The notes under the pieces were generated by a model. It saw only the letters and a list, made by a program, of their open reading frames with translations, was not told the DNA's origin and made no database searches. The position numbers and the translations under genes were made by a program. Below are positions 45,022-47,882 of a stretch of DNA of 64,000 nt, piece after piece. Numbering within the stretch: the first letter of the stretch is position 1; the number at the start of each line of letters is the position of its first letter. Origin of the DNA: an uncultured Candidatus Saccharibacteria bacterium (lineage in GTDB: Bacteria > Patescibacteriota > Minisyncoccia > UBA6257 > JAUSGH01); NCBI GenBank assembly GCA_964372325.1, contig CAYJQG010000001.1, positions 120 to 64,119 on the forward strand, given 5' to 3'.

Positions 45022-45192
45022 TTAGCCAATAGCTACCAACGAAAAATCCCAAACTTCAAGCATCAAATAACAAATAAATTCTAATTTTTTAAATTCGAAT
45101 TTAAGTTATTAAATATTATTTGGAATTTGGTATTTGAGATTTGGTGCTTGTATCTTTGGTGGCTATATCATAAGTGGCGAATACTACTTCAT
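45022..45192. mobile_element. family C MITE-like element with ~30-bp extended terminus; left boundary of the dnaG-containing inverted-repeat-bracketed segment
   Basis: Near-identical reverse complement of the 47722-47882 copy, including ggtggctatatcataagtggcgaatactac. Confidence 0.85.
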
Positions 45193-45756
45193 GGAATACG
45201 ACATAACCGTCAAGCAGTATTCCGCCGAAGTTCGGCCAGTGTAATAAACTCGTACCGACCCGGGGCGATCGTCTCGTTTTTCTTCGGCAATTTTTTCAAC
45301 AGCAAACGAAAATCCAGTTGCGGGCATAGGGCTCGAAGCGAGGTAGCACTGAATATAAACTCGTCCGTCAATTGTTTTTTCACACGAGACAATAACTTGG
45401 AGTGCGATACCACAGGGCAAGACAACATAAGCCTCAGCATGTTTGTCTGGCGTAAGTGCTTGCCCACCCTCCTCTTGTTTAAAAGCAAAGCGCACAAACC
45501 ATGAGATGACCGGGACATTATCGAATAATCGATGCATGGTACTTTGCACGAGTTTCCACTCTACAAGCGTACCAATGAGATACATCAACCCCATAAGTAA
45601 GGCAAGATTAGTGGCGACGTTAAGCACTGCATAGTTCGTTGCATGAACTCCAAGCGAAACGGTGATATCCCACGCCTTCAAGAGCAGAAAGCTAATAACG
45701 CTAAGTGGAATAATAATCATTAGTCCTTTTTTGAATCGACGACGGTACACTCGCAT
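45184..45756 (-). CDS. DUF502-family membrane protein
   Basis: 190 aa. Two N-terminal TM helices. C-terminal PMPATGFSFAV resembles the DUF502 P.P.SGF motif. Stop codon lies inside the MITE-C terminus. Confidence 0.5.
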   Translation of the reverse strand: MRVYRRRFKKGLMIIIPLSVISFLLLKAWDITVSLGVHATNYAVLNVATNLALLMGLMYLIGTLVEWKLVQSTMHRLFDNVPVISWFVRFAFKQEEGGQALTPDKHAEAYVVLPCGIALQVIVSCEKTIDGRVYIQCYLASSPMPATGFSFAVEKIAEEKRDDRPGSVRVYYTGRTSAEYCLTVMSYSMK

Positions 45757-45823
45757 CTCCAGATTTCAAGAACTAATCGTAGTATACGGCTTGGATCAAA
45801 AAGAAACAATGAGGGCAATAATT

Positions 45824-45960
45824 TAGCCACTAACGGAAAAATCCCAAACTTCAAGCATCAAATAACAAATAAATTCCAATTTTTGGGCATTCGAATTTAT
45901 ATATTGGATATTATTTGGGATTTGATTATTGAGATTTGGTGTTTGTGTCTTTAGTGGCTA
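45824..45960. mobile_element. family C MITE-like element
   Basis: tagccactaacggaaaaatcccaaacttcaagcatcaaataacaaataaattccaa ... tctttagtggcta. Confidence 0.8.
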
Positions 45961-45992
45961 TTAACTTATCAAATGGTATACAGTCAAAGTAT

Positions 45993-47723
45993 ATGGCCGA
46001 CACGCAAGAAATCAAAAATAAAATAGACGTTGTGGATTTTATAGGGGCATATGTAAAGTTGATGCCTGCGGGAAAGAATTTTAAGGGTCTTTGTCCATTC
46101 CACAAAGAAAAGAGTCCGTCGTTTATGGTCACTCGCGACAGGCAGTCGTGGCATTGTTTTGGTTGTAATGAGGGCGGAGATATTTTTAAATTTTTAATGC
46201 AGTTTGAGCACCTCGAATTTTTTGAGGCGTTAAAAATATTAGCCGAACGTGCAGGGGTAGAGCTGAAGGGTGGGCAAGGAATGGAGTCATATCGAGAGTT
46301 ATATGAGGTAAACCTTGTCGCTAAAGATTTTTTTAAACAAGAATTACAAAAATTAGGCGCGCATCAAGAGCATGCAAGGGCATATCTTCAATCGCGTGGG
46401 TTGAAAAAAGAAACCATTGATACGTTTGAAATTGGTGTGGCTTCTACGAGTTCAGATGCATTGCTACGGTATTTAATTGCAGCGAAAAAGTCGCTGCACG
46501 ACATTGAGCGTGCTGGGTTGGTATTTCGTAGCGAGCGGGGGACGTACTTCGACCGTTTCAGAGGGCGGATTATGTTCCCGCTATATAATAGTTTCGGGAA
46601 AGTGGTAGGGTTTACTGGCCGTGTGCTTCCGGGGAGCGAGCAGTTGAGCGGATTCGAGGCCGCAAAATACGTTAATAGTCCCGAGACACCGATTTTTAGT
46701 AAATCAAAGTTGTTGTATGGCTTTTACGCGGCGAAACAACATATTCGTGAGACGAAAACAGTAGTCATAGTGGAGGGTCAGATGGATTTTTTAATGTCTT
46801 GGCAAGATGGGGTAAAGAATGTGGTAGCGTCATCGGGTACTGCGCTAACCGTTGATCAGTTAACGACACTTCGGCGCATTGCCGATACGGTGATATTGAG
46901 TTTCGATACCGATGCAGCGGGGATCGCCGCTGCAGAGCGAAGCATTGACACAGCACACAACATGGATTTTACTGTACGTTTGCTCGAAGTGGTGGGTTAC
47001 AAAGATCCCGCAGACGCAGTGCTAGGAGAGCCTGGTGCAATGGCACGTTTTATTGTAAACGCAAAACCAGCGCTGACCTATTACATTGATCGCTATATTC
47101 GTGATGGCGATGAGGCGGCAGTACAAAAACGGAATGTGCGCATAGTACTCGCAAAAATAAAACAAATGGAAAGTGCAATCGAGCGCCAGCATGCGATTCG
47201 GGCGTTAGGAGAGCGCGCGGGGCTCTCCGAAGAAGTATTAATGGAAGAGTTGCAACGTGTGGTAGTAGCAAATGCGCCGGTGATCAAAAAACGACAAGAT
47301 GAAATCGCGGCGGTATATGAAGAAAAGCGCTCACGTAGTGGGGCGATAAGCGAACGTCTACTCGGTCTTGCGTTGGTTGATGCAACGCTATTAAAAGAGA
47401 TGGAGTCAATGATAAAATTTATGGAAGAGCCATACCGTATGCTGTATGGGCACATCGTTAACGGGTCGTTACTCGATGTGCCGGGTCCCTTGCGTATACT
47501 CGCAGATAAAATAAGTTTAAGCGGGGGGTTGCTGGGTAACAGTGGAGAAAAAGGTGAGTCGGTGGTATTGTGTCGCGAGCTAAAACAGGAATATTTGAAG
47601 GGTCGCAGTGAAGCATTGCGTAGAGCGATTGCGTTGGCAGAGCGGCAAGGAGACGAAACGGCTCTTGGAAACGCGCTTAAAGAATTTGACGAAACAAACA
47701 AGGCGCTCCATACTCTAAGCTAG
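45993..47723 (+). CDS. dnaG: DNA primase
   Basis: CHC2 zinc finger (CPFHKEKSPSFMV...WHCFGCNEGGD), TOPRIM (VVIVEGQMDFL, SFDTDAAG). Start taken at MADTQEI. Stop TAG is the first triplet of a MITE-C copy. Confidence 0.9.
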   Translation: MADTQEIKNKIDVVDFIGAYVKLMPAGKNFKGLCPFHKEKSPSFMVTRDRQSWHCFGCNEGGDIFKFLMQFEHLEFFEALKILAERAGVELKGGQGMESYRELYEVNLVAKDFFKQELQKLGAHQEHARAYLQSRGLKKETIDTFEIGVASTSSDALLRYLIAAKKSLHDIERAGLVFRSERGTYFDRFRGRIMFPLYNSFGKVVGFTGRVLPGSEQLSGFEAAKYVNSPETPIFSKSKLLYGFYAAKQHIRETKTVVIVEGQMDFLMSWQDGVKNVVASSGTALTVDQLTTLRRIADTVILSFDTDAAGIAAAERSIDTAHNMDFTVRLLEVVGYKDPADAVLGEPGAMARFIVNAKPALTYYIDRYIRDGDEAAVQKRNVRIVLAKIKQMESAIERQHAIRALGERAGLSEEVLMEELQRVVVANAPVIKKRQDEIAAVYEEKRSRSGAISERLLGLALVDATLLKEMESMIKFMEEPYRMLYGHIVNGSLLDVPGPLRILADKISLSGGLLGNSGEKGESVVLCRELKQEYLKGRSEALRRAIALAERQGDETALGNALKEFDETNKALHTLS

Positions 47724-47882
47724 TAGTATTCGCCACTTATGATATAGCCACCAAAGATACAAGCACCAAATCTCAAATACCAAATTCCAAATAATATTTA
47801 ATAACTTAAATTCGAATTTAAAAAATTAGAATTTATTTGTTATTTGATGCTTGAAGTTTGGGATTTTTCCATTAGTGGCTAG
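47722..47882. mobile_element. family C MITE-like element, inverted relative to the 45022-45192 copy
   Basis: gtagtattcgccacttatgatatagccaccaaagatacaagcaccaaatctcaaatacc .... Begins with the dnaG stop codon TAG. Confidence 0.85.

Follow-up and report, generated by a model that had tools for sequence, protein, structure and literature searches.

The 64,000-nucleotide stretch of contig CAYJQG010000001.1 analysed here (the window) carries a locus with genes for a C39-like peptidase, a DUF502-like membrane protein, DnaG, RpoD and a DUF5667 protein. A short palindromic repeat, called family C, is present in six copies in the window, four of which lie in consecutive spacers of this locus, and two of these four face each other on either side of dnaG and the DUF502-like gene. 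The repeat is palindromic and non-autonomous and resembles miniature inverted-repeat transposable elements (MITEs), a new family of an already known kind. The genes and signals of the locus are the following:

44011-44943: C39-like peptidase gene (Pfam)
44947-44963, minus strand: terminator-like GC hairpin with a T-run (consensus match only), downstream of the DUF502-like gene and of the left repeat module
45184-45756, minus strand: gene for a 190-aa membrane protein, DUF502-like, a remote member (profile search via relatives)
45993-47723, plus strand: dnaG, 576 aa from the ATG at 45993 (Pfam)
47912-49138, plus strand: rpoD, sigma-70 with regions 1.1 to 4 (Pfam)

The 190-aa protein, which the sequence-only reading had labelled DUF502, has no match to the Pfam model DUF502 (PF04367) even at E<=10. 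A full-library search finds 13 distant relatives, four of which match DUF502 with a best E-value of 7.8e-7, and the label keeps remote support through these relatives only; the protein appears to be DUF502-like at most. The public gene call for dnaG (P0001) has 594 aa and places the start within a family C element (45824-45960), 18 codons before the ATG at 45993 (segment 45936-45992), while this ATG agrees with the DnaG proteins of relatives. Two further genes touched by family C in the window, which encode the S49 peptidase SppA and HolB, are confirmed by Pfam. An N-terminal extension of sppA encoded by the element had also been read from the open reading frames (ORFs). The ORF does run into the copy at 7203-7339, but the extension is an artefact of the ORF track, because the likely start is the ATG at 7152.

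Copies and anatomy of family C

The count of six copies made from the letters alone is borne out by alignment and by a profile, which locate the cores, and the termini are common to the copies on alignment. The copies, with the two larger modules that contain the bracketing pair, are distributed as follows:

7203-7339, plus strand: copy upstream of sppA (S49 peptidase gene, minus strand)
11198-11333, plus strand: copy whose first triplet, TAA, is the holB stop codon
44998-45188, plus strand: left 191-nt module, formed by an outer flank (44998-45029), a family C core (45030-45165) 3' of the DUF502-like gene, and an inner extension (45166-45188)
45824-45960, plus strand: more diverged copy with 85-87% identity to the flanking pair, lying between the divergently oriented DUF502-like gene and dnaG
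47722-47913, minus strand: right 192-nt module, the inverted copy, formed by an inner extension (47722-47744), a core (47745-47881, inverted) in the dnaG-rpoD spacer, and an outer flank (47882-47913)
49128-49264 (49128-49283 with the adjoining outer-flank motif), plus strand: copy directly 3' of rpoD

The core has 136-137 bp and runs from TAGCCACTAACG to CTTTAGTGGCTA in the alignment of the six copies. Its terminal inverted repeats are 10-13 bp long (TAGCCACTAA...TTAGTGGCTA), and in five of the six copies the outermost 10 nt of the two ends are reverse complements at 9-10 positions; the left end of the copy at 49128 is degenerate. The dinucleotide TA is found at 11 of 12 ends, where it could equally be a conserved part of the terminal inverted repeats, and no longer direct repeats lie beside the copies. 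The GC content is 26-31%, against 45% for the window, and stop codons in all six frames of all six copies make the element non-coding. On either strand the core forms one long imperfect hairpin with a minimum free energy (MFE) between -33 and -46 kcal/mol, the z-scores lying between -4 and -7.5. No strand preference of the folding energy is consistent between copies, and covariation is negligible (2 of 52 pairs), so it provides no argument for an RNA structure. At gathering thresholds Rfam finds two tRNAs only in the window, and it gives nothing at E<=1 in 44900-49400. Outside the flanking pair, the copies are 85-93% identical to each other over the core.

Bacterial MITEs are under 200 bp, have terminal inverted repeats and 5'-TA-3' termini, and are A+T-rich with long stem-loops (PMC2229807). 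Family C fits this description in being small and non-coding, bounded by terminal inverted repeats, and folded as an A+T-rich long stem-loop, and the proposal of a MITE-like family abutting gene ends is supported by the shared termini and by the positions of the copies. Searches with Pfam, NCBIfam and PHROGs over about 55 ORFs, several of them orphans without assignment, find no transposase or parent insertion sequence (IS) in the 64-kb window. The window also contains no RAYT (Y1 transposase) and no solo family C terminus beyond the six copies. Family C would be mobilised by a transposase acting in trans.

Two other kinds of system were considered and set aside. An invertible phase-variable segment is not indicated, as no site-specific recombinase is found among the scanned ORFs of the window and only the ancestral orientation of the dnaG segment is observed. 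TIGR-Tas arrays are tandem arrays of short units, whereas each family C element forms one long hairpin, and a Nop-domain protein was not noticed.

The inverted pair and the ends of the genes

A repeat finder run on the window gives two arms of 148 nt, 45041-45188 and 47722-47869, which are 100% complementary and are separated by 2533 nt. In a gapped local alignment they grow to 44998-45188 and 47722-47913 (191 and 192 nt), and the pair encloses the DUF502-like gene and dnaG. The near-identical inverted copies described around these two genes by the sequence-only reading are thus confirmed, and the alignment also establishes that they are inverted relative to each other. The seven mismatches and one indel of the pair are all located in the outer 43 nt, while the inner 148 nt are without difference. 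Since the other pairs of copies are 85-93% identical, this perfect tract is far beyond chance: at 8-10% divergence the probability of no difference in 148 nt is below 5e-6, and the confinement of all eight differences to the outer 43 of 191 nt has p = 6.6e-6. The boundary between identical and diverged sequence (0% and about 19%) falls inside the left terminus of the core, away from the edge of the element.

On either side of the core, the two bracketing copies have further sequence in common. The inner flank of 23 nt, TATCATAAGTGGCGAATACTACT, is found nowhere else in the window, and the outer flank of about 32 nt holds TTGAYGAGGGATTAGG, which occurs again, inverted, at 49268-49283 beside the copy at 49128-49264. 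An extension of about 30 bp had been reported from the sequence alone; an extension beyond the core does exist, but its length is 23 nt, and the second, outer shared flank of 32 nt had been overlooked. In the left module the inner extension contains the TAG stop of the DUF502-like gene. The right module spans the entire dnaG-rpoD spacer, from the AG of the dnaG TAG to the AT of the rpoD ATG. A short inverted match, AGTATT...AATACT, is present at the module ends, as read from the gapped alignment. With the DUF502-like gene and dnaG transcribed divergently, the inverted bracket amounts to one 3'-flanking module placed in the same relative orientation after both stops.

The outer flank of the dnaG modules (GAGGGATTAGGGTTAG) resembles a fragment of the CCCTAAA word family of hairpins. 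On contig L005, which carries the dnaG-rpoD locus of a relative, the S6-SSB spacer (2168-2260) contains seven tandem CCCTAAA heptamers, which are telomere-like and pair with an upstream TTTAGGG-rich arm.

Family C had been said to supply stop codons to five genes, with stops lying in the TAGCCAC terminus of the element. A core begins with a stop triplet in one case only, the holB TAA (11198-11200). The dnaG stop (47721-47723) and that of the 190-aa gene (45184-45186) lie inside or at the edge of the 23-nt extension, and the rpoD TAG (49136-49138) aligns with core positions 8-10, the first ~10 nt of the copy at 49128-49264 overlapping the rpoD codons GY*. RpoD ends in LEGY* both here and on the element-free relative contig L008, DnaG ends at the same position on L007 and L008, and the 190-aa protein ends at the same residue as P0122, a 57%-identical homologue. 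As these element-free relatives and the homologue end at the same places, dnaG, rpoD and the DUF502-like gene keep ancestral stop positions on the evidence of the alignments, the repeats starting at or 2-5 nt inside them, and the elements do not supply these three stops. A stop would be restored if a TA-targeting element inserted at the TA of a stop codon.

Promoters are not enriched in a promoter and terminator scan (5 found, 9.3 expected), and 44947-44963 is the sole relevant terminator-like site. Its position downstream of the DUF502-like gene and the left module suggests that this module is transcribed as the 3' untranslated region (UTR) of the DUF502-like gene, and the elements would be co-transcribed as UTR hairpins.

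Probable insertion into an ancestral locus and its rival explanations

A DnaG search assigns the window to Patescibacteria; the closest relative is 54% identical, and the named matches are Harrisonbacteria, Wolfebacteria and Paceibacterota. Five contigs with relatives of DnaG, L005 to L009, were compared with the window, and the family C profile finds no copy in them. On L008, which carries the 54%-identical DnaG, the genes are AstE-like, C39, a 163-aa minus-strand gene, dnaG, rpoD and DUF5667, which is the order and orientation of the window. On L007 they are AstE-like, a 177-aa minus-strand gene, dnaG and rpoD. Homology of the 190-aa protein to the products of the minus-strand genes on L007 and L008 is remote and required a profile (hhalign probability 95%, E about 3.6e-8), the direct BLASTP comparison being not significant. 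The genes dnaG and rpoD are neighbours also on L005, L006 and L009, so that the adjacency is kept throughout L005-L009. The spacers of the locus differ in length as follows:

C39/DUF502-like: 8 nt on L008, 240 nt in the window
DUF502-like/dnaG: 81 nt on L008, 236 nt in the window
dnaG/rpoD: 9 nt on L008, 188 nt in the window
rpoD/DUF5667: 68 nt on L008, 182 nt in the window

The dnaG-rpoD spacer has 21 nt on L007, 52 nt on L005 and 1 nt on L009. Four copies in four consecutive spacers have p about 0.002, given six copies and roughly 60 spacers. As judged from these relatives, the locus is ancestral and each of the four consecutive spacers gained one element with the gene order unchanged; if the locus is ancestral, the elements were inserted and dnaG neither moved nor inverted. 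Family C copies would have colonised four consecutive, ancestrally very short spacers, between the C39 gene, the DUF502-like gene (minus strand), dnaG, rpoD and the DUF5667 gene. A possible rearrangement of the dnaG-rpoD operon, raised in the sequence-only reading, is not supported, the order and orientation being the same on the element-free contigs L007 and L008. For the locus the result is mainly corrective, since dnaG-rpoD is not rearranged or captured, the stops keep their ancestral positions and the public call makes dnaG 18 codons too long.

A gene for a protein of 197-250 aa with no Pfam match is located between rpoD and the DUF5667 gene on L005 (9251-9898), L007 (9349-9942) and L009 (8134-8886). 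The window and L008 are without this gene, and the window has a family C copy in that spacer (49139-49320).

The family C copies are mosaics of each other. The copy at 47745-47881 has a left terminus like that of 45824-45960 at 3 of 3 informative sites, and the rest is like 45030-45165 at 17 of 17. In the copy at 49128-49264, a central block like that of 45824-45960 is flanked on both sides by sequence like that of 45030-45165, and over the right 55 nt the copies at 45030, 47745 and 49128 do not differ. This mosaicism suggests that the perfect tract arose by local gene conversion, and gives signs of concerted evolution between neighbouring copies. The two bracketing copies would first have shared homology over the whole 191-nt module, and a recent non-reciprocal exchange between them (gene conversion), 2.5 kb apart, would then have homogenised the inner 148 nt.

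Taken together, colonisation of an ancestral locus by a MITE-like repeat followed by gene conversion of the pair is the probable history, held with some reserve. Several points weigh against it. With a closest DnaG relative of only 54% identity there is no empty site at nucleotide resolution, a target-site duplication beyond a possible TA cannot be shown, and the window holds neither a transposase nor a parent IS. The modules share 23 nt and 32 nt outside the core, which plain transposition of the core does not explain. Elements occupy not only 3' ends but also every one of the six divergent (5'-5') spacers, which leaves no single evident function at the RNA level. The perfect identity has about the length of one read, and an assembler that collapsed similar copies may have contributed to it. 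This last point can be taken further, the whole of the 100% identity being attributed to a short-read metagenome assembler that collapsed or bubble-popped similar copies. The 148-nt tract has about the length of a read or k-mer, and the window belongs to a single metagenome-derived contig of 64,448 bp seen once; nevertheless, the orientation of the contig fits the synteny of the relatives, the diverged outer parts and the unique flanks were resolved, and an artefact would alter only the degree of identity and not the presence of the inverted pair, so we consider this explanation distinctly improbable. The main alternative to gene conversion, which is itself unlikely, is a single recent duplicative insertion of the 191-nt composite (core and flanks) into a minimal dnaG-rpoD spacer, after which the outer 43 nt diverged under selection at the 5' end of rpoD. 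The right module fits the spacer exactly from stop to start where relatives have 1-21 nt, a short inverted match lies at the module ends, and the outer-flank motif is present again beside a third copy, all of which a single insertion accommodates. A divergence of ~19% in 43 nt adjoining 0% in 148 nt is difficult to obtain after one event, however, and the differing left terminus of the right copy equals another family member at every informative site, as in a recombinant and not as in point divergence.

The modules could instead be selected RNA or DNA signals, such as 3'-UTR hairpins acting against PNPase, operon punctuation or terminators, or promoter carriers, and the identical pair would then reflect a shared function of the divergent genes. 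The same module in the same relative orientation immediately 3' of both stops, the stable hairpins, the terminator-like site after the left module on the minus strand, the PNPase gene encoded in the window and the presence of hairpin modules even within a ribosomal-protein operon agree with such a function. This view is improbable, since family C has the negligible covariation and the lack of strand preference in folding energy described above, it takes no consistent orientation towards the upstream gene, divergent 5'-5' spacers hold copies too, no T-run follows the hairpin, and an Rfam match is absent. The segment with the DUF502-like gene and dnaG could also have been moved or inverted by the two copies, acting as a composite-transposon-like unit, which the sequence-only reading had proposed, or as inversion mediators, for example through intramolecular replicative transposition. 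The geometry of two near-identical inverted copies around 2.5 kb suits this explanation, and a perfect inverted repeat of 148 bp is a plausible substrate for RecA. Composite transposons such as Tn5 and Tn10 likewise have two inverted copies around a few kilobases. The dnaG bracket differs from them, as its flanking units are non-coding and no transposase is found in them or elsewhere in the window, its outer ends have diverged where a composite transposon requires intact ones, and there is no sign of movement. The cargo consists of essential housekeeping genes in their ancestral place, with the order and orientation of the element-free L007 and L008, where the spacers are short, and with the dnaG-rpoD adjacency kept in L005-L009. 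This explanation is very improbable and is largely refuted by synteny.

Known repeat systems and the hairpin load of the window

Family C can be compared by its features with the bacterial MITEs or small mobile sequences (Delihas 2008, PMC2229807), above all with IS630-related ones such as the TA-targeting RUP of Streptococcus pneumoniae, which are likewise below 200 bp, non-coding and A+T-rich. Terminal inverted repeats, 5'-TA-3' ends, a long stem-loop and intergenic copies abutting genes are common to both, whereas family C is without a cognate IS in the window and its target-site duplication is not demonstrable. A search of the literature found no MITE or palindromic-repeat family described in the Candidate Phyla Radiation (CPR)/Patescibacteria. 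Correia elements (NEMIS) of Neisseria are similar in size (about 107-155 bp), in their TA ends, in their sites at gene ends and within operons, and in their likely co-transcription as hairpins. Their terminal inverted repeats have roughly 24-26 bp, against about 10-13 bp in family C (about 10 bp for the perfect part), where the whole element is one imperfect hairpin. The long form of Correia elements has an IHF site, and promoter and RNase III effects are documented for these Neisseria elements. Rickettsia palindromic elements (RPEs) are also palindromic, present in a small genome and in contact with coding regions, but they insert in frame within ORFs and are translated, whereas family C has stops in six frames and lies outside the ancestral coding limits. 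REP/BIME sequences and REPINs, which are mobilised by RAYT, are intergenic palindromic repeats found also within operons; family C is about four times longer, AT-rich and bounded by TA-ended terminal inverted repeats, and no RAYT is found in the window. A separate 20-nt GC-rich palindrome of the window, CCTGCCTGCCGGCAGGCAGG, is closer to the REP/BIME class than family C is.

Self-comparison of the window gives 45 repeated intervals with 5005 nt, or 7.8% of its length. A repeat-family element or a long hairpin is present in 34 of the 42 spacers of at least 60 nt (for example 1024-1125, 3038-3119, 3467-3607 and 3937-4069), including six of six divergent spacers and the ribosomal clusters S13-S11-S4-rpoA-L17 and L13-S9, and about 42% of the intergenic bases are covered by repeats or hairpins. 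The elements in 5'-5' spacers argue against a pure terminator role. Several word families occur among them, ACGAAAT/ATATACGAA, TTTCTAAT and CAAAT, and similar hairpins are carried by the relatives and by unrelated contigs. When the TAGCCAC ends are left aside, the inner 105-120 nt of family C are recognisably homologous to elements on contigs L003 and L004 (nhmmer E 1e-16 to 1e-18), and family C-like hairpins are located as follows:

L003 1067-1211: between acyl-CoA synthetase (FadD-like) and LivFGK genes, a setting unlike Patescibacteria
L004 2500-2623 and 4491-4630: on a contig with PilB and a large membrane protein
L001 2224-2301

Their presence in unrelated contigs may reflect cross-lineage or horizontal spread. 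A scan with a 29-nt family C motif gives one match in genome contigs, on a short scaffold binned as Deltaproteobacteria, and three in metagenome contigs; two patterns give no family C match in viral contigs, and blastn gives none in PLSDB plasmids.

The hairpin modules nest into each other, at least one family retains its stem across genera by many compensatory changes, and homologous inner hairpins are found in unrelated bacteria. A wider reading, which is quite unlikely, is that family C is one of many modules built from the words CAAAT, ACGAAAT/ATATACGAA, TTTCTAAT and CCCTAAA, that these modules saturate the spacers of this Patescibacteria lineage, and that they form an undescribed and widely shared class which dispenses with a classical transposase and is spread and homogenised by template copying (gene conversion or template switching). 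If so, this class might also act as gene punctuation, and the dnaG bracket would be one visible conversion event. In any case a supposedly streamlined Patescibacteria genome has a very high load of palindromic repeats. This load bears on metagenome assembly, where perfect inverted repeats have roughly the length of a read, on gene calling at the junctions of elements and genes, where the elements cause mis-annotation of start codons, and on the persistence of non-autonomous elements in tiny genomes with no transposase in sight.

The window holds further repeats. Two hairpins (1024-1123 and 3481-3600) that are otherwise 97% identical differ by the exact insertion of a 20-nt GC-rich palindrome, (G)CCTGCCTGCCGGCAGGCAG(G), into one of them, which gives the filled and empty pair ATATAC|GAATAT. 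The palindrome has 10 copies, and the pair suggests a tiny mobile element of REP-like kind, able to nest within others. The genes for S13 and L17 are preceded by one shared module (547-628 and 3038-3119; 95% identical), which stops exactly at the ATG, and followed by one shared hairpin module (1024-1125 and 3467-3607), a second case of whole-spacer sharing between genes 2.5 kb apart. The family TAGAC...ATAACATT...ATTTCGGCT...AAAGCTTAT...GTCTA, of about 110-190 nt, is found at 25858-26026, 27968-28162 and 54186-54372, with partial copies at 6015-6134 and 12011-12083 and a member on L007 (1610-1716). It has no Rfam match, and its stem is kept by compensatory changes at 20 of 60 predicted pairs among four sequences, one of which is from a relative with a 54%-identical DnaG; it may be either a structured RNA or a palindrome whose symmetry is maintained by template switching.

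Three perfect palindromes of 40-56 nt (28343-28398, 32166-32207 and 52760-52799) are unrelated to each other but have a common centre, ACGATCGT, with A-run and T-run flanks, and may be unusually long bidirectional terminators. A second inverted-repeat bracket is formed by 36440-36527 and 39171-39266 (70 nt, 93% complementary, 2687 nt apart). It lies directly 3' of tRNA-Ser and tRNA-Pro and encloses two orphan genes, 36555-37439 (plus strand) and 37680-38939 (minus strand), which have no Pfam, NCBIfam or PHROG match, and it may represent a true mobile or integrated element. From tRNA-Ser(TGA) to tRNA-Pro(GGG) the whole gap is taken up by a near-perfect hairpin of 269 nt (35968-36236, MFE -121 kcal/mol), and the tRNA-Ser predicted by ARAGORN has only 72 nt, which is short for a serine tRNA.

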